Source of the DNA: Candidatus Altimarinota bacterium
GTDB lineage: Bacteria > Patescibacteriota > Gracilibacteria > JBDHUY01
NCBI GenBank assembly: GCA_039809385.1
Contig: JBDHUY010000002.1
Span: forward strand, 132,058-196,057
Direction: 5' to 3'
DNA: 64,000 nucleotides
Position 1 is the first letter of the stretch, and every line of letters begins with the position of its first letter. The notes below the pieces were generated by a model, which saw only the letters and a list, made by a program, of their open reading frames with translations, was not told the DNA's origin and made no database searches. Of this stretch, positions 7,301-42,855 are shown piece after piece. A program made the position numbers and the translations under genes.

Positions 7301-7519
7301 AAAAACTCCCTCTTTTGCGGTAACAGGTTCCTGAAAGAACCTCTGTCGCAGGAGCAAGAGATCCAATAAGAATCGCAAATTCAATACATTAACGAAGGAA
7401 ATAGAGACATTTGAAAGTTTTGTTTATAGACCGAAACAGGTCAGGAGACCTGTTCCTGCGAATGAAGAACGCGAGTCACATAAAAAAGGACTATAAAATA
7501 GCTCTTCGCCATAGCACCC

Positions 7520-7890
7520 CTTCTGGTTCCAAGTTGTACTTGGAACCCCACTGTCCCGTACATTACCATCGTTTGCGTGCCCAAACACCGGAGTTCTATG
7601 CACAACACATGATTGTCCAGAACGTTGCCTTTCTGGTTCCAGGTTGTACCTGGAACCTCCATGTTCCGCGCATAAACTATGTTTGAGTGCCAAAACATTG
7701 AAGCCCGCTTCTGGTTCCAAGTTGCACTTGGAACCTCAATGTTACACACCGCACCATCGTTTGGGTGCCCAAACATAGGAGTTCCATGTACAACATGGAA
7801 CTAGAAAACAAAAGAGAAACCAGAAAATACCAAAACTAAAATTTTCATAACTTTTCCCATGAGAATCTGGTTCCAGCTTGCAGCTGGAAC
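7520..7890. repeat. REP palindrome cluster upstream of the RAYT gene
   Basis: GGTTCCAAG-TTGTA-CTTGGAACC (7525), GGTTCCAGG-TTGTA-CCTGGAACC (7635), GGTTCCAAG-TTGCA-CTTGGAACC (7713), inverted AGTTCCATG-TACAA-CATGGAACT (7780) and GTTCCAGC-TTGCA-GCTGGAAC (7870). Confidence 0.9.
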
Positions 7891-7933
7891 ATTTTTGTCT
7901 TACGCTCAGAACAAATTCTTCTATATTTCCACT

Positions 7934-8509
7934 ATGCCTTCACCGCGCATCAGCACATCTTTTCCAAATGACATCTACTTTCTCACCTGCACTGTCATCG
8001 AATGGATCGATATTTTTACCAAACCCGAGTATTTTCGTGTGCTAACGGATAGCCTAACATTCTGCCAGAAACAGAAGGGACTGATTGTTTATGCATACGT
8101 CTTTATGACCAACCATATCCATTTTATCGCTCAATCAAATCAAAGCCCTTTGCATGCAATCATACGAGATTTCAAAAGACATACCACAAAAGAGATCAAG
8201 AAGCTTCTGCTAACAGACAATCGCCACTATATTAATACACTCCTCTCTCATTCCTACGCCAGAAAACATGGTTCGGATTTTCAGATCTGGCAGCGCGAAA
8301 ACTTTGCCGAACACATTCAGAGCGAAGCCATGATGCTTTCCAAAGTAGAATATATTCATCAAAATCCGGTCAAGAAGAACTATGTTATACAACCGGAAAA
8401 CTGGTTCTATTCATCGGCACGATTCTATACGATGAATAACGAAGATCTGGTGAAATTGCATCGTTTGAGTGGTGAAAACATAGTAGTTCCAGGTACAACC
8501 TGGAACTAG
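7934..8509 (+). mobile_element. REP-associated tyrosine transposase (RAYT, Y1/HUH, IS200-like)
   Basis: IYFLTCTV, YVFMTNHIH (HUH), DFKRHT, IWQR and YIHQNPVK (catalytic Tyr), WFYSSA; flanked by palindromes. Confidence 0.92.
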
Positions 8510-8696
8510 AAAATACGCCAGTCCCTGCCGGCAGCTTTTCACAAAAAACGACTTCAAAATTCCACGTACACAAAAACACCGACATATTGTCAAAAAAATA
8601 TCCCTCTCTGGTTCCAAGTTGCACTTGGAACCCCACTGTCCCGCACATTACAATCGTTCGAGTGCCCAAACACCGGAGTTCTATGTACAACACATG
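8484..8696. repeat. REP palindromes downstream of RAYT, including an ~90-bp near-copy of 7520-7610
   Basis: TAGTTCCAGG-TACAA-CCTGGAACTA at 8484-8508; GGTTCCAAG-TTGCA-CTTGGAACCCCACTGTCCCG...CAACACATG at 8610-8696. Confidence 0.9.
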
Positions 8697-8798
8697 GCGG
8701 GTTCAGGTTTCTTGATTGTATCGAACCAAGTTTTCGAATTATCAAGATACTCAGTTGTAAAAGATTGAATGCTAACTTAGAATGCTTCACTATAGAAA

Positions 8799-17740: not shown

Positions 17741-17788
17741 GCGCCCGTAGCTTTCGCTGGATAGTCCGCCGCGGCGGATCGACCCAGG
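17741..17788 (+). pseudogene. Degenerate 5' copy of tRNA-Arg carrying a 14-bp palindrome
   Basis: GCGCCCGTAGCTTTCGCTGGATAG-TCCGCCGCGGCGGA-TCGACCCAGG versus the tRNA sequence GCGCCCGTAGCTCAGCTGGATAG-AGCACCTGGCT-TCGAACCAGG. Confidence 0.75.
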
Positions 17789-17847: not shown

Positions 17848-17924
17848 GCGCCCGTAGCTCAGCTGGATAGAGCACCTGGCTTCGAACCAGGGGGTCGTGG
17901 GTTCGACTCCTGCCGGGCGCACCA
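17848..17924 (+). tRNA. tRNA-Arg(UCG)
   Basis: Cloverleaf: acceptor GCGCCCG/CGGGCGC, anticodon arm CCTGG-CTTCGAA-CCAGG, GTTCGAC T-loop, encoded CCA. Confidence 0.97.
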
Positions 17925-37978: not shown

Positions 37979-38947
37979 ATGAAGCGCTTCTTAACGTTTG
38001 TATTCTTGCTTGCCTTAACCGGAGAATTTGTCTTTCTGGCTGTTGTCCGGGAAGTCAATCAGACCGAACAAAAGATACGTCTGACCAGATTGTCCGATAT
38101 TTCAGCGGTACCGCCGCCATCGGAAAAGATATTACCGGACCAAAAGAATGGATCACCGGATATACGTTCAGTCGCATTTGAAACGGATTCCCTCAAAACC
38201 AGCGATTCTTATCCGAAAATCCGTTCTGCCGCGCCGGTAGTCGTACCTTCCGTGCTTCGGGGCGCCAAAAGAACGTTCACCAATCGCGATTTTGCCCGTA
38301 ACTTCGACCGGATGGTACGCGAGAGCACTGTTGTAAGCGGCGCCGAAAAGAAAGAGGAAAGTGACCGTGTCAAAACCCTTCTATACAAGACAAGTCAGCA
38401 ACTTCCGCCATCACACCAAAAAGCTCTCCAGTATTTCATGTTACATCTGGATTATAACGAGACCCGCGGGCTGGCCGGACAGAATACGATGATCCTGCAT
38501 ACCGGGACGCTTCCCGACCGGGAAATTGAGGCGGTATATATTCACGAAATGGGACATGTGGTCGATACCGGACTGTTTTTAGGCAGCAACGACGCTTTTC
38601 CCAGCAATTTCAGCGACGGGAAAACACAAGTCTTTTCCAACGATCCGAGCGTCAGTTTTTACAGCATTTCCTGGAAATCCAATCAGGAACAACATCAAGG
38701 AAGCACGAAGCGGGATTTCGTATCGGGATATGCCATGAGCGATCCGTTCGAGGATTTTGCCGAAAGTTATGTTTTTTATGTATTGTCGGGAAGAACATTC
38801 CGGACTATGCTCCCCAGCAGTCCAAAACTTGAGCAGAAATATAAATTTTTACAAGAGATTGTCTTTCAGGGGCGGGAGTTTGACACAGGTGTCCCAGCCA
38901 GCGATACCGAGACACGTGTTTACGATGCCACTAAAATAACTTCGTAA
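37979..38947 (+). CDS. Membrane-anchored/secreted zinc metallopeptidase
   Basis: N-terminal hydrophobic helix; HEMGH and FVSGYAMSDPFEDFAES. Confidence 0.82.
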   Translation: MKRFLTFVFLLALTGEFVFLAVVREVNQTEQKIRLTRLSDISAVPPPSEKILPDQKNGSPDIRSVAFETDSLKTSDSYPKIRSAAPVVVPSVLRGAKRTFTNRDFARNFDRMVRESTVVSGAEKKEESDRVKTLLYKTSQQLPPSHQKALQYFMLHLDYNETRGLAGQNTMILHTGTLPDREIEAVYIHEMGHVVDTGLFLGSNDAFPSNFSDGKTQVFSNDPSVSFYSISWKSNQEQHQGSTKRDFVSGYAMSDPFEDFAESYVFYVLSGRTFRTMLPSSPKLEQKYKFLQEIVFQGREFDTGVPASDTETRVYDATKITS

Positions 38948-38989
38948 AAACAGTCTTGTCTTCCCGGCTAAGAGTATTTCGCATTTCCC

Positions 38990-39018
38990 TTGAATGTGCT
39001 GATAGGCTTCGCTATACT
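38990..39018 (+). promoter_or_regulatory. Putative promoter of tRNA-His
   Basis: TTGAAT-17 nt-TATACT. Confidence 0.55.
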
Positions 39019-39069
39019 CAATCTCGTTTTGGCGAGAAACGTTTTACGGTTTCTTGCAATGAATAACAT

Positions 39070-39145
39070 GGCGGACGTAGCTCAGTGGTAGAGCATCTGG
39101 TTGTGGCCCAGGGGGTCGCGGGTTCGAGCCCCGTCGTTCGCCCCA
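39070..39145 (+). tRNA. tRNA-His(GUG)
   Basis: G-1 with C73, acceptor GCGGACG/CGTTCGC, anticodon loop TTGTGGC, GTTCGAG T-loop, encoded CCA. Confidence 0.97.
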
Positions 39146-39209
39146 GTATTGTTCAATCTCCAACAGTCACACACGAAAAAAGCAGATTCATAGGAGAATC
39201 TTCTGTTTT

Positions 39210-39280
39210 GTGGTAGAAATATCTCTGGTTGTGGTCCGCCGCGGCAGATCTCGGGTTCGAGCCCCATCGTTCGCTCTAGT
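39210..39280 (+). pseudogene. Degenerate 3' copy of tRNA-His carrying the same 14-bp palindrome
   Basis: GTGGTAGAAATATCTCTGGTTGTGG-TCCGCCGCGGCAGA-TCTCGGGTTCGAGCCCCATCGTTCGC versus the tRNA sequence GTGGTAGAGCATCTGGTTGTGG-CCCAGGGGG-TCGCGGGTTCGAGCCCCGTCGTTCGC. Confidence 0.85.
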
Positions 39281-39667
39281 TTTTCATTACTCTCGAATAC
39301 ATGGCAAAGACTTATTCGTTATTCGTATTTTCCGCATATAAGCTTTTGGCACCTCCAAAAACTGTCTCTTTATTCAGAGGCAGGTTCGGTAAAGCTATAT
39401 ACAATCTTTCAAATACACTCAACAGACTTTAGAGCTTGCTTGAAAAGTATATATAGATTGTTTCTTGTTCGCTGTCATGCAGGATTGCCCAGCATCCGGG
39501 GATACACGAAATATATAAATAAGACGTAGTGACGATGAACTCTATTAGATGCATGCTGCAGGTAGTTCAGTGAACGCCACTCTCTTTCAATCTGTACTTC
39601 CCAGACCCGGATTCCGGTCAAGCCGGAGTGACAGATACTAGACTTTGAAGACTTTTCAGATACCCTG

Positions 39668-40129
39668 TTAGATTTCCAGTTCGCGCAGCACCTTATTGAC
39701 TATGTCGAACGAAAAACCGCGATTACCCAAAAAAGCGGCCAGTTTTTGTCGTTGCTTTTCTTTTGGATGACGGGTAAGGCTCTTCTCTTTTTTACTCGCT
39801 ATTTTGAAGGCGTCTGCAAATTCATCGACTTCTGAGAGGGACGTACTGATAAAGCGGGCTTCCACTCCCCTTTTCTGTAATTCCTGCCGCATAAAGAACC
39901 GGCTCTTGCCTTTTTTTCGCAGCGACCGCACCAAAAGCTCAGCGAATCGTTCGTCGTCTAAGTAATGAAGCTCTAGCAACTTCTTCAACACTTGTTCGAC
40001 CTGCTCCGAATCCTCAAATCGCTTCAACAGTTTGGAACGGAGTTCATAGATCGAATGATCGCGCAGCGAGAGGATTTTGAGAGCGCGGTTAAAGATATCA
40101 GTGAAGGAGACCGGAATCGATGGTTTCAT
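39668..40129 (-). CDS. recX: Regulatory protein RecX
   Basis: ALKILSLRDHSIYELRSKL, YLDDERFA, ELQKRGV and FLGNRGF; downstream of recA. Confidence 0.92.
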   Translation of the reverse strand: MKPSIPVSFTDIFNRALKILSLRDHSIYELRSKLLKRFEDSEQVEQVLKKLLELHYLDDERFAELLVRSLRKKGKSRFFMRQELQKRGVEARFISTSLSEVDEFADAFKIASKKEKSLTRHPKEKQRQKLAAFLGNRGFSFDIVNKVLRELEI

Positions 40130-40330
40130 ATAAAAATACTTTTTCCCCCCTCATCGTCTGCATTTCTATCGTCTTTGGAAAAGATACGGCCACAAGGCAC
40201 GTTACTCCTTATTGGCCATAATAACTTTTCCCTCGCAGCTTTCAAGATAATCATAACCATAATATTGACGTTGTATGATTCGACGAAATAGTATGAAACT
40301 GGTTTCCTGACAATAGAGAAAGGTTGGCAT

Positions 40331-40362
40331 AAAAAGCCTCGTGCATTTTCGCGAGGCTTTTT
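40331..40362 (-). terminator. Intrinsic terminator after recA
   Basis: AAAAAGCCTCGTG-CATTTT-CGCGAGGCTTTTT hairpin. Confidence 0.75.
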
Positions 40363-40372
40363 GTATACAATT

Positions 40373-41431
40373 TTATTCTTCCTCTTCTTCCGGCATCTCT
40401 TCTTCCTCTTCGGCTTTGACCGCAGTGACGGGTGCTTCCTGCTTTAATACATCACGCAATTTCTGCTCAAGCGATTGCAACAATTTCGGGTCGTTTTTGA
40501 GTGAATCTTTCGACTGATCGCGACCGACACCCAGCTTCTTATCGCCAAGAGAATACGTATTTCCGGTCTTTTTCACCAGACTGAAGCGAATACCACTATC
40601 TAGCACATCAGCTACGTGATCAACCCCGACGGCATAGATAAAGTCATATTCGGCGGTTTTAAATGGAGGAAACACTTTATTCTTGACCACTTTGATCTTG
40701 ACCCGGTTTCCGATAATCTCTTTGGCATCACCGGTACCCGATTCGATTTTGTCCCCTTTTCGGATATCCACGCGCACTGAAGCATAAAATTTCAAAGCAT
40801 TCCCGCCCGTAGTGGTTTCGGGGTTACCGAACATCACGCCGATCTTCATGCGGATCTGATTCAGAAAGATTACCGTCGTGTTCGTCTTACCAATAGTCGC
40901 CGTCAATTTTCGTAAAGCCTGACTCATTAGACGAGCTTGCAGCCCCATATGTGAATCGCCCATATCACCCTCGATTTCGGCCCGAGGTGTCAGCGCGGCC
41001 ACCGAGTCGATCACGATAATATCGACTCCCCCGGAACGTACCAGCGTTTCGGTAATCTCCAAGGCCTGCTCGCCGTCGTCGGGTTGAGACAAAAGCAGGT
41101 TATCGATATCTACGCCGATCTTTTTGGCATACTCGGGATCAAGCGCATGCTCGGCATCGATAAAAGCAGCTTGTCCGCCCTGTTTTTGAATATTGGCAAT
41201 GACGTTAAGGGCCAACGTCGTTTTTCCCGAAGATTCGGGGCCGAAGATCTCGATGATCCGTCCGCGCGGCATGCCGCCACCCAGAGCTAAATCCAAAGAG
41301 ATAGAACCGGTCGGAATCATGTCGACGTTGAGGCGCTTGGTTTCGCCGAGCTTCATGATCGATCCTTTGCCAAATTGTTTTTCGATCATCGAAATGGCGT
41401 TCTTGACGGCCTCGTTTTTGGGATTGGGCAT
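40373..41431 (-). CDS. recA: Recombinase A
   Basis: [37 protein letters not shown] and GGNALKFY; no intein. Confidence 0.99.
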
Positions 41432-41439
41432 GGGGAAGA

Positions 41440-41621
41440 AGTATTAAGTATAAAGTATTACGTATTCGGTATAAAGAAGAACAATCTCAAAGTTCAAATA
41501 CAAAATTTCAAAATAAGTTCAAAACTCGAATATCGAAATATAGTCATGAATTTATTTGGATTTTGGGCTTGGAGATTCTTTTGTCATTTGGTCCGCCGCG
41601 GCGGATTGAAATTTGATATTT
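41440..41621. repeat. Heptamer tracts, with the TCCGCCGCGGCGGA palindrome at 41592-41605
   Basis: AAGTATT-type run abutting the recA start, and TCAAA/TTTGG inverted tracts. Confidence 0.7.
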
Positions 41622-41666
41622 ACGAGATCATTTCATCGTTCAGAGAAACGGTTCATCCTTTCTTCT

Positions 41667-41909
41667 CTATAACCTGTAATAAGACCGTATGCTTTGTTCC
41701 GTCCCGAAAGCGATATCGCTGCCTTTGCAATCCGGGCAGGCATACGTATATTTTTTGCCTTTTCGTAGGGCTTCGACTAATTTTTTGCAGGCCTTGCAGT
41801 AAAAAACAATGGGACCGCGCTGCAAAACGACCGCCTCTGCCAGAGGAGTCTCCACAACGTCGGGTATGGCTTGTTCAGCTACGATAGGCGTTTGATCGGC
41901 TTGATCCAT
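41667..41909 (-). CDS. Small zinc-ribbon protein
   Basis: FYCKACKK...YACPDCKG. Confidence 0.7.
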   Translation of the reverse strand: MDQADQTPIVAEQAIPDVVETPLAEAVVLQRGPIVFYCKACKKLVEALRKGKKYTYACPDCKGSDIAFGTEQSIRSYYRL

Positions 41910-42015
41910 GGGGAAAAATCAAAAATACAAACCCAGTCTATCCGACTGGGCCGGAAAAGCAAGACGAGGTAGCTTCCAAACATCAAAAAACGCTAAATTA
42001 TGAACAAAATAAGCC

Positions 42016-42855
42016 TTAGAAGGCTGCATGCTGCCGTGCATAAGCTTCTACAGTATTGGAAAGCAGCATGGCGACAGTCATAGGACCGACACCCCCGGGC
42101 ACAGGGGTATAAAAGCTGGCCCGCTGTCCGATTCCGGCTGGGTCTACATCACCATATACCTGCTTTTCTTCAAAGGTATTGCCCACATCGATTACCACGG
42201 CGCCTGTTTGAATCATATCTGCACGAATGAGATGCTTGACCCCGGCGGCTACGACCAGAATTTCGGCTGTACGGGTAATCTCTTCCAATCGGTAGGTTTT
42301 ACTGTTACAAACGGTGACGGTAGCACCGGCATTGATCATCATGAGCGCCAGAGGTTTCCCGACTAAATTGCTGCGTCCGACAATCACTACTTTCTTTCCG
42401 GCAATATCGATGTCATAGGCATTCAGCAGCGCCATGATCCCCAGAGGCGTCGCCGGAGCCAGAGTCGGCCGTTGTAAAAAAAGGTTTCCAACATTCAAAG
42501 GATGAAATCCGTCCACATCTTTATCCGGACGGATCGCTTCGATGATCGTAGTTTTATCGAACTGGACTGGCAAAGGCAATTGAACGATCAAGCCCGAAAA
42601 CGATTCGTTGGCATTGACGCGTCGGATCGTTTCCAAGACTTCGGCCTGTGTAACATTTTGAGAGAACTGGAGTAATTCAAAACCGATACCGATTTTTTCA
42701 CAGCTTTTACGCTTCAAACCGATATAACTGAGCGAAGCGAGATTATCTCCTACCAGGATCACCCCCAGTTTAGGCGGTGAGGAAAAAGCGGCCACGCGTT
42801 CGGCCAGTTTTTCCAAAATAGCAGTAGAAACACGCCGTCCATCTAATAAAATCAT
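42016..42855 (-). CDS. folD: Methylenetetrahydrofolate dehydrogenase/cyclohydrolase
   Basis: VQLPLP, KDVDGFHP, GRSNLVGKP and TPVPGGVGPMT. Confidence 0.97.
   Translation of the reverse strand: MILLDGRRVSTAILEKLAERVAAFSSPPKLGVILVGDNLASLSYIGLKRKSCEKIGIGFELLQFSQNVTQAEVLETIRRVNANESFSGLIVQLPLPVQFDKTTIIEAIRPDKDVDGFHPLNVGNLFLQRPTLAPATPLGIMALLNAYDIDIAGKKVVIVGRSNLVGKPLALMMINAGATVTVCNSKTYRLEEITRTAEILVVAAGVKHLIRADMIQTGAVVIDVGNTFEEKQVYGDVDPAGIGQRASFYTPVPGGVGPMTVAMLLSNTVEAYARQHAAF

Follow-up and report, generated by a model that had tools for sequence, protein, structure and literature searches.

A hairpin-bearing partial copy of tRNA-His in a Patescibacteria genome, probably left by a small tRNA-targeting cassette

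What placed a partial copy of a tRNA-His gene, with a GC-rich palindrome beside its anticodon, a short distance downstream of the intact gene? The question is raised by a stretch of 64,000 nucleotides (nt) from Candidatus Altimarinota bacterium (assembly GCA_039809385.1, contig JBDHUY010000002.1, positions 132,058 to 196,057), which is called the window in the following. The palindrome, designated PAL, is the 14-mer TCCGCCGCGGCGGA, that is TCCGCC-GC-GGCGGA. The copy is probably a non-functional, slightly decayed junction of the 3' type, devoid of a GIY-YIG nuclease gene and left behind by a small mobile cassette that targets tRNA genes; judging from the assemblies compared, such cassettes appear to be rampant in this class of the Patescibacteria (candidate phyla radiation, CPR). 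The source genome of the window (G000) comprises 1.87 Mb in 26 contigs with 45.7% GC and 47 tRNA genes, and its RecA is nearest to that of metagenome-assembled genomes of Patescibacteria, Saccharibacteria, and Peribacteria (62 to 67% identity). It was compared to 200 further genomes of the class with sizes of 0.6 to 2 Mb each. Labels of the form G0xx or G1xx indicate these other genomes, Lxxx individual loci, and Cn contigs.

Exactly two tRNA genes were identified by ARAGORN in the window, tRNA-Arg(tcg) and tRNA-His(gtg), listed in Table 1. An earlier note, made from the sequence of the window alone, had described a partial second tRNA-His that extends from the D-loop to the acceptor in a register of 125 bp, and this description was borne out by the alignments: the copy starts with the GTGGTAG of the D-loop at position 39210, after a gap of 64 nt, and ends at position 39278. 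It has kept TCTGGTTGTGG, the 5' strand of the anticodon stem plus the loop, and the retained TCTGG TTGTGG includes the GTG anticodon. In place of the CCCAGGGGG of the gene, the copy possesses TCCGCCGCGGCAGA, so that the replacement of the 3' anticodon stem and variable loop by a near-palindrome, also claimed in that note, was confirmed. TCCGCCGCGGCAGA differs by a single mismatch, which breaks the stem, from the exact PAL at 17765. The 14 nt of the palindrome stand for 9 nt of tRNA sequence and interrupt the block of identity. From the TC onward, 27 of 30 positions agree with the T arm, the 3' strand of the acceptor, and the 3' tail of the gene; the decay of the copy thus amounts to three mismatches in these 30 nt and one in PAL. 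In a genome-wide blastn-short search, the 3' block of 23 nt showed 96% identity to the gene (E = 2e-4). The homology ends at the 3' end of the tRNA, with an alignment score of the flanks of 7 compared to a shuffle mean of 8.5, and a continuation of the homology into the 3' flank was rejected as not significant.

The copy was not called a tRNA by ARAGORN, and a scan of positions 38000 to 42500 with Rfam at E values up to 1 yielded the real gene only. The 5' strand of the acceptor is absent from the copy, and the fold of positions 39205 to 39282 was no better than that of shuffled sequences (z = +0.70). The spacer between gene and copy, in contrast to the copy, folds with -16.9 kcal/mol at z = -2.59, a value equaled by 3 of 200 shuffles, and its predicted hairpin together with the following TTTT is likely the terminator of tRNA-His. 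Contigs from two independent studies, X1 (covering 38925 to 39421) and X6 (39031 to 39295), contained the gene, the spacer, and the copy with zero differences, which indicates that the locus is not an assembly artifact. A metagenome scan with the pattern of promoter plus tRNA-His gave no match; nine matches were obtained with the pattern of the His+PAL junction, all of them in GC-rich coding sequences without a tRNA.

The mirror image of this arrangement is located at tRNA-Arg, where a duplicate of the 24 nt of the 5' end is followed by PAL and by TCGACCCAGG, which corresponds to the anticodon plus the 3' stem with one change. ARAGORN and the alignments agreed with the earlier claim that both tRNA genes of the window show the pattern on opposite sides, the Arg copy being upstream and the His copy downstream of the respective gene. 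With up to two mismatches allowed, PAL occurred three times in the window compared to 0.36 expected, and none of 100 shuffles contained three matches. The whole source genome harbored 14 exact sites and 63 within two mismatches.

Six of these 63 sites were located in partial tRNA copies (pseudo-copies), upstream of Arg-tcg, Gln-ctg, Met, and Phe and downstream of His and Met, compared to about 0.4 sites expected by chance according to a rough calculation (about 1.6 kb of about 266 kb of crudely defined non-coding sequence). The association of pseudo-copies and palindrome that had been noted in the window is therefore real and non-random. In all six copies, PAL fell at the boundary of a cloverleaf arm. 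It replaced the D arm in the Phe copy, the D and anticodon arms jointly in the Met copy on C4, the 3' strand of the D stem plus the 5' strand of the anticodon stem in the Arg copy, and the 3' strand of the anticodon stem plus the variable loop in the His copy and the Met copy on C25. A position beside the anticodon, as had been emphasized before, consequently holds for His but is not specific, with the D arm or the D plus anticodon arms affected elsewhere and 57 other sites of PAL in the genome. These 57 sites outside of tRNA copies were found in a terminator-like context, AAAAAGA-PAL-TCTTTTT, in a T/G-rich dispersed repeat, in a conserved four-copy element, and, for some, as chance matches in coding sequences.

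Table 1. Features of the two tRNA loci and of the PAL sites in the window
Feature	Position	Strand	Description or basis
Arg mirror copy	17741..17788	+	acceptor 5' strand and D arm 17741-17764; exact PAL 17765-17778; TCGACCCAGG 17779-17788
Functional tRNA-Arg (TCG)	17848..17924	+	ARAGORN
Promoter-like TTGAAT-17-TATACT upstream of tRNA-His	38990..39018	+	consensus scan, 9/12 positions; pattern match only
Functional tRNA-His (GTG)	39071..39145	+	ARAGORN; Rfam tRNA model 63.8 bits, E = 1.1e-12
64-nt spacer	39146..39209	+	AT-rich hairpin ~39181-39204, then TTTT 39205-39208
Pseudo-copy, left part: D-loop remnant GTGGTAGA, then TCTGG TTGTGG	39210..39234	+	alignment to the gene; global alignment
PAL variant TCCGCCGCGGCAGA	39235..39248	+	replaces 3' anticodon stem and most of variable loop, tRNA positions ~39-46
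Pseudo-copy, right part	39249..39278	+	variable-loop end, T arm, acceptor 3' strand, degenerate CCA (CTA)
Third PAL, exact	41592..41605	.	T/G-rich repeat between recA and an 80-amino-acid zinc-ribbon-like gene; not tRNA-related

The analysis of the tRNA flanks of the whole genome, which had been suggested as a check, showed that the pattern recurs. All tRNAs were compared to the genome by blastn-short, and loci outside of annotated genes were counted. About 27 pseudo-copy loci were located beside 14 of the 47 tRNA genes of G000, 24 of them from this census plus weaker Arg, Gln, and Met copies identified by eye, and six carried PAL. A second hairpin, GTCCCGAC-N6-GTCGGG (TCCCGAC-N6-GTCGGG), was present in 11 copies exactly in place of the anticodon arm at positions 27 to 43. 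These copies belong to tRNA-Leu(gag), Pro(ggg), Pro(cgg), and Ile, and their loops occurred both ways round, as GGTAGC and as GCTACC. The exact pattern of this second hairpin was found in one of 201 genomes, which was G000, so that this exact sequence is lineage-specific. Upstream 5' copies were as frequent as downstream 3' copies, and tandem arrays of copies formed the termini of contigs (start of C25, end of C20, end of C18, start of C17).

Pseudo-copies were also abundant in other genomes of the class, with varied truncation points and tandem amplification. The complete genome G032 (1,215,430 bp, 38 tRNAs), treated with the same census protocol, contained 48 pseudo-copy loci, including tandem arrays of four His units (3' copies), four Lys units, and three Glu units. 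In this genome, one and the same frame encloses an AT-rich hairpin in the case of four tRNAs and TCCGCCGATTAGGCGGA in the case of tRNA-Arg. tRNA-His itself was targeted in G035, where the gene is followed by a 20-nt 3' copy and then by a GIY-YIG open reading frame (ORF), and G026 contains a second copy of tRNA-His with an insertion in the D-loop.

Small genes for GIY-YIG proteins are the second component that recurs beside tRNA genes. A search of G000 for PF01541 gave 12 matches, one in a UvrC-like frame of 632 amino acids (aa) and 11 in 10 small loci. For five of these 10 loci, a gene for a tRNA or for tmRNA lies on the same strand at a distance of not more than 120 nt, and a sixth adjoins a pseudo-copy. 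On C25, the GIY-YIG ORF begins 9 nt past tRNA-Met, its stop codon is in the anticodon loop of a Met pseudo-copy, and an exact PAL starts with the next base. The proteins of about 80 to 95 aa consist of the GIY-YIG domain alone (Pfam scores of 50 to 61 bits) and resemble the UPF0213 structures 1ywl and 1zg2; a separate DNA-binding domain was not detected in them. YhbQ is a member of UPF0213. The stand-alone bacterial GIY-YIG proteins YhbQ and YazA have been placed in the Slx1 family in a review (PMC7017083).

Such a small gene was present in 86 of 121 genomes of the class. At 25 of 29 loci of the other genomes, the distance to a tRNA gene of the same strand is at most 350 nt, and at 19 it is at most 100 nt; no tRNA gene of this kind is near L047, L061, L066, and L070. 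The usual layout starts with a 5' pseudo-tRNA reaching to the T-loop, one arm of which has been exchanged for a perfect GC hairpin, and continues with the GIY-YIG ORF and the real tRNA gene. The mirror layout, with a 3' pseudo-copy after the ORF, was found too, as were tandem copies and other members devoid of the nuclease gene (G016, L048, L069). An automatic screen detected a perfect GC hairpin between tRNA-identical segments in 19 of 30 loci, with a few of these flags being natural arms of duplicated tRNAs. The left flank extends mostly to position 25 to 27 and the right flank starts mostly from position 43 to 45; at L054 and L069 the hairpin is located 3' of the anticodon, as it is at His.

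The type of hairpin tracks the type of tRNA across families. TCCCGA(C/T)... was associated with tRNA-Pro, TCCCGCC...GGCGGGA with tRNA-Gln in four genomes, and PAL took the place of the D arm in copies of tRNA-Phe in both G000 and G052, which belong to two different families. The GIY-YIG proteins likewise group by the type of the adjacent tRNA, with 11 label changes in the tree compared to a shuffle mean of 17.4 and a minimum of 14 (none of 1,000 shuffles gave 11 or fewer), albeit this clustering overstates independence because kin share labels.

As observations on individual small loci, a GIY-YIG ORF at C8:28374-28688 of G000 shares the strand of the tmRNA gene and is separated from it by 88 nt on the downstream side, a further one is located downstream of tRNA-Tyr (C4:122788-122991), and on C11 tRNA-Val and tRNA-Ala flank one with a frameshift. 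At L045, L049, and L044, which are of the 5' type, the 5' strand of the T stem of the pseudo-tRNA, GGAGG or GGGGG, resembles a Shine-Dalgarno sequence 8 to 12 nt ahead of the GIY-YIG start, and several GIY-YIG ORFs run on into the downstream real tRNA gene before they reach a stop codon.

Comparisons with uninterrupted sites were available in one genus (g17). At tRNA-Pro(tgg), G043 has an uninterrupted gene with a homologous upstream flank, and in G105 an insert follows directly past position 26 of the tRNA, consisting of the TCCCGATGGGCATCGGGA hairpin, AGACCGGAGGT, the GIY-YIG ORF, and a second copy of positions 1 to 26. This indicates that the insert includes the hairpin, which adjoins a direct repeat of 26 nt. 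Three states were found at tRNA-Pro(cgg) downstream of the same upstream gene. This site is empty in G055, contains a pseudo-copy without a nuclease gene in G016, and contains two pseudo-copies plus a GIY-YIG gene in G095. The G016 copy carries the TCCCGATGGGCATCGGGA hairpin of the G105 type and, additionally, a different small hairpin in the D-loop; a PAL-like hairpin is located in the D-loop of each of the two G095 copies. Hairpin-bearing copies without a nuclease gene are thus a natural state, and the tRNA-Pro loci of this genus are polymorphic for the presence or absence of what, from the aligned assemblies, are putative cassettes.

These data can be combined into a sequence of events. A cassette brings its own pseudo-tRNA, in which one arm is exchanged for a perfect GC-rich hairpin, being PAL here and of the TCCCG...CGGGA type elsewhere, and many cassettes also encode a stand-alone GIY-YIG nuclease of about 90 aa and of the UPF0213 kind. 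The cassette may recombine with the chromosomal tRNA gene within the homologous sequence to one side of the hairpin, which would restore an intact tRNA gene and leave the partial, hairpin-bearing copy alongside. The hairpin would in this case mark the end of homology. Later on, cassettes may drop the nuclease gene, or may originate without one, and may become amplified in tandem. The His copy agrees with the layout of a cassette, being a partial tRNA beside its cognate gene with an arm replaced by a near-perfect GC hairpin at an arm boundary, and has probably originated from such an insertion. The GIY-YIG protein is a candidate for the driver of insertion.

A more specific proposal is possible, albeit tentative: the hairpin-substituted pseudo-tRNAs may be the targeting or attachment module of hitherto undescribed selfish cassettes in the tRNA genes of CPR bacteria. 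Pairing would occur via the universally conserved segments of the D- and T-loops, and breaks or nicks would be introduced by the minimal, possibly structure-selective GIY-YIG protein of the UPF0213 kind. A hairpin of the TCCCG...CGGGA or TCCGCC..GGCGGA type in place of the anticodon or D arm may stop branch migration, may guard against deletion by recombination between the repeats, may prevent the appearance of a second tRNA bearing an anticodon, or may serve as a handle for binding of the nuclease. The PAL sites not related to tRNA would be solo derivatives. Neither hairpin-substituted tRNA pseudo-copies nor GIY-YIG genes tied to tRNAs in CPR bacteria were found in a literature search, the coverage of which was thin for subscription journals. 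The accessible part of the Peribacteria genome paper (PMC4736985) does not mention tRNA fragments or GIY genes.

Several points weigh against an origin of the His copy from a cassette. The spacer of the locus has no second occurrence anywhere in G000, and neither a GIY-YIG ORF nor a remnant of it was detected by tblastn with seven queries at this site (C2 near 171 kb). The contigs of four sequencing runs, all at low depth, contained no joints or variants that would represent the presence or absence of the copy, and none of the four neighbors of the gene in the window was found at the tRNA-His loci of 11 relatives. The insertion event at His is thus undocumented because no close relative has the locus. 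PAL, furthermore, has an independent existence, as shown by its 57 sites not related to tRNA, and the unlike D-loop hairpins of G095 and G016 at the same locus indicate that hairpins can be gained secondarily. The 30 loci used to define the architecture had been picked by the presence of a GIY-YIG gene, which represents an ascertainment bias. No such gene is located beside 14 of the 17 hairpin-bearing copies of G000 and most pseudo-copies of G032, so that the nuclease, instead of being the driver, may be a passenger.

The alternative that comes to mind first is a classical attachment (att) site remnant, in which an element with a tyrosine integrase duplicated the 3' part of tRNA-His, the island shrank to 64 nt, and a REP-like palindrome landed there later. 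The repeat begins within the tRNA and does not continue past its 3' end, as is the case for att duplications, a general phenomenon that is described in a study on integrated elements (PMC9897764). PAL is a dispersed repeat with 57 copies outside of tRNA sequences, and the different D-loop hairpins at one locus in two species demonstrate that secondary gain of a hairpin occurs. This explanation is nevertheless rather unlikely. Neither a recombinase nor island DNA is present in the 64 nt between the His repeats or beside them, as far as the tyrosine type is concerned, serine recombinases not having been searched for. Tyrosine recombinases (PF00589) numbered two in G000, neither of them at the His site, one each in G032, G075, G095, and G052, and two in G023, which is too few to account for about 27 pseudo-copies in G000 and 48 in G032. 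A palindrome that landed by chance should not be found in six pseudo-copies, compared to roughly 0.4 expected, each time at an arm boundary, and should not have replaced the same arm in the tRNA-Phe copies of two families. Moreover, the hairpin was within the inserted DNA at the documented insertion in G105, and the palindrome breaks the identity block of the His repeats. The doubt expressed in the earlier note that an ordinary integrase island explains the duplicate was thus justified with respect to the missing integrase; the locus is nevertheless probably the junction of a mobile element, albeit of another kind.

Two explanations dispense with a mobile element altogether or assign a function to the copy. 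Transcribed as a tRNA-like element, the copy could serve as a processing signal, a terminator, or a decoy, or it could regulate how tRNA-His matures; the hairpin would then stand in for the anticodon arm by design. The identity of the locus in the contigs of two studies, the conservation of hairpin types with the tRNA type across families, and a terminator-like pattern over the T-arm remnant and the following T-run (39258 to 39273) would agree with such a function, which is nonetheless highly improbable. Without the 5' strand no acceptor helix is possible, the copy escaped ARAGORN and the Rfam tRNA model at E values up to 1, its fold equals that of shuffled sequences, and the PAL at His contains a mismatch that breaks the very stem. 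A likely terminator separates the gene from the copy, and copies elsewhere are cut at varied points and amplified in tandem. A local tandem duplication, caused by slippage of the replication machinery at a strongly transcribed tRNA gene and with the palindrome resulting from template switching, deserves hardly any weight. It would account for the tandem arrays of identical units composed of spacer plus tRNA part on C25 and C18 of G000 and in the His, Lys, and Glu arrays of G032, but the sequences that follow the gene and the copy lack homology to each other, so that the locus is not a simple tandem repeat. Template switching copies local sequence and would not place one 14-mer beside six unrelated tRNAs, and the comparison with the empty site revealed foreign inserted DNA.

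Transposases were also considered as the source of movement. An IS200/IS605-type model was rejected because no TnpB (PF07282) was present in any of five genomes and no Y1 transposase in G032 and G023. The single REP-associated tyrosine transposase (RAYT, REP being repetitive extragenic palindromes) of G000, at 7859 to 8509 of the window (NF047646, 101 bits), is flanked by a different REP, GGTTCCARGTTGTACYTGGAACC, and not by PAL; it was rejected as the mobilizer of PAL because its own REP differs. The nearest PAL is 9 kb away. The region from 7440 to 8760 is by itself a textbook RAYT/REP cluster with at least five copies of GGTTCCARGTTGTACYTGGAACC, which are unrelated to PAL. GIY-YIG restriction enzymes such as Eco29kI and Cfr42I cut CCGCGG, which provided a lead; avoidance of a restriction site was rejected because CCGCGG is not depleted in G000, with 427 copies. 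The counts of exact PAL sites and of GIY-YIG genes across genomes showed no correlation by eye.

With a cassette as the probable source of the His copy, the resemblance to known systems is partial. SegB of phage T4 is a free-standing GIY-YIG homing endonuclease of the tRNA gene region (PMC2330249). In both cases, a GIY-YIG gene is among or beside tRNA genes and gene plus flanks act, or here would act, as a selfish unit, and the grouping of the proteins by the adjacent tRNA type resembles target-specific homing lineages. Unlike SegB, the proteins described here comprise about 80 to 95 aa with the UPF0213-like catalytic domain alone, and their cleavage of DNA is putative; the elements are chromosomal and located in CPR bacteria, and upon insertion a part of the tRNA becomes duplicated and a hairpin-substituted pseudo-tRNA is introduced. 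The att sites of integrative elements share with the loci studied here a complete and a partial tRNA copy in direct orientation, a regenerated gene, and junctions in the D-loop, the anticodon region, and the T-loop; sublocation classes of tRNA-gene integration sites were reportedly defined by Williams in 2002. Integrated elements that leave partial tRNA genes have sizes of 9 to 23 kb in one study (PMC9897764). The intervening DNA here comprises, unlike that at att sites, 64 to 400 nt instead of kilobases and contains no integrase, a heterologous GC hairpin splits the repeat, tandem arrays exist, and 5' copies are as frequent as 3' copies.

PAL resembles the REP and REPIN elements mobilized by RAYTs in being an extragenic, short, and perfect palindrome of which tens of copies exist, some in terminator-like settings, but the RAYT of G000 is flanked by another REP, and PAL-rich G023 as well as pseudo-copy-rich G032 yielded no Y1 transposase match. 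The mobile GC-rich palindromic clusters of AT-rich organelle genomes and the Rickettsia palindromic elements are short hairpin modules in RNA genes, spacers, and repeats of genomes that are richer in AT. They resemble the hairpins described here in that a GC-rich hairpin can be swapped for a resident one, for instance TCCGCCGATTAGGCGGA at tRNA-Arg of G032. The hairpins of the class are, unlike these modules, tied to tRNA pseudo-copies and GIY-YIG cassettes, and the likeness is one of form.

tRNA genes are the classic landing sites of large islands borne by integrases. In this lineage with genomes of 1 to 2 Mb, almost no integrases were found, yet the ratio of copies to tRNA genes ranged from about 27:47 in G000 to 48:38 in G032. 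The copies follow a stereotyped design in which a GC hairpin takes the place of one arm, and they are often accompanied by a minimal GIY-YIG gene. Should the cassettes be autonomous, they would rank with the smallest self-targeting mobile elements that are known, and this would provide a function for part of the widespread UPF0213 family. In CPR assemblies, they would also account for tRNA calls that are spurious and for interrupted contigs, such as C17, C18, C20, and C25 of G000, which end in arrays.

The tRNA-His gene and its pseudo-copy are located in a neighborhood of a RelA/SpoT-like gene, a peptidase-like gene, recX, and recA. Between the pseudo-copy and the end of recX (about 39474 to 39666), a motif of about 28 nt (about 39605 to 39633) recurs at least at eight further sites in G000 with about 92% identity.

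Further repeated elements were observed in the vicinity of tRNA genes and of PAL. Downstream of tRNA-Lys(ctt) and tRNA-Asp of G000 (C3:67060-67220 and C9:7690-7860), a common GC-rich element of about 100 nt directly precedes a duplicate of the last 17 to 20 nt of the respective tRNA. Analogues in G032, composed of a common scaffold plus the 3' end of a tRNA, are located at Ser, Gln, Lys, Val, Ala, and Gly genes, one of them with the AT-rich hairpin swapped for TCCGCCGATTAGGCGGA. Segments of tRNA-Phe recur at the boundaries of an islet of about 1 kb that follows this gene in G000 (C11:23100-24520) and encodes on the opposite strand an ORF of 298 aa with a BRO/DinD-type appearance by eye.

PAL is an internal hairpin of the four-copy element of G000 (L073 to L076, at C1:75955, C1:173864, C7:65954, and C18:15504), which comprises about 150 nt of the form GTCTGAAAAGTCTTC ... 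GTCA-PAL-TCCGGGTAC ... GAGAGTAGTGTTC and may be a structured RNA or a leader. A three-copy element of G023 (L026, L032), GGGGG.TTGGGG..AAAACTGGTCTCTCGGATGATATAGGGTACA.GG.ATGCGA-PAL-TTT.CCCC, likewise contains an exact PAL as an internal hairpin. Rfam contained no family for the pseudo-copies, for the four-copy element, or for the three-copy element. At L047 (G028:C19), the GIY-YIG ORF is located within an insertion in the 5' region of the 16S rRNA gene, and this insertion is closed by the stem TCCCGCCCATTC / GAATGGGCGGGA, which is reminiscent of the tRNA-linked hairpins.

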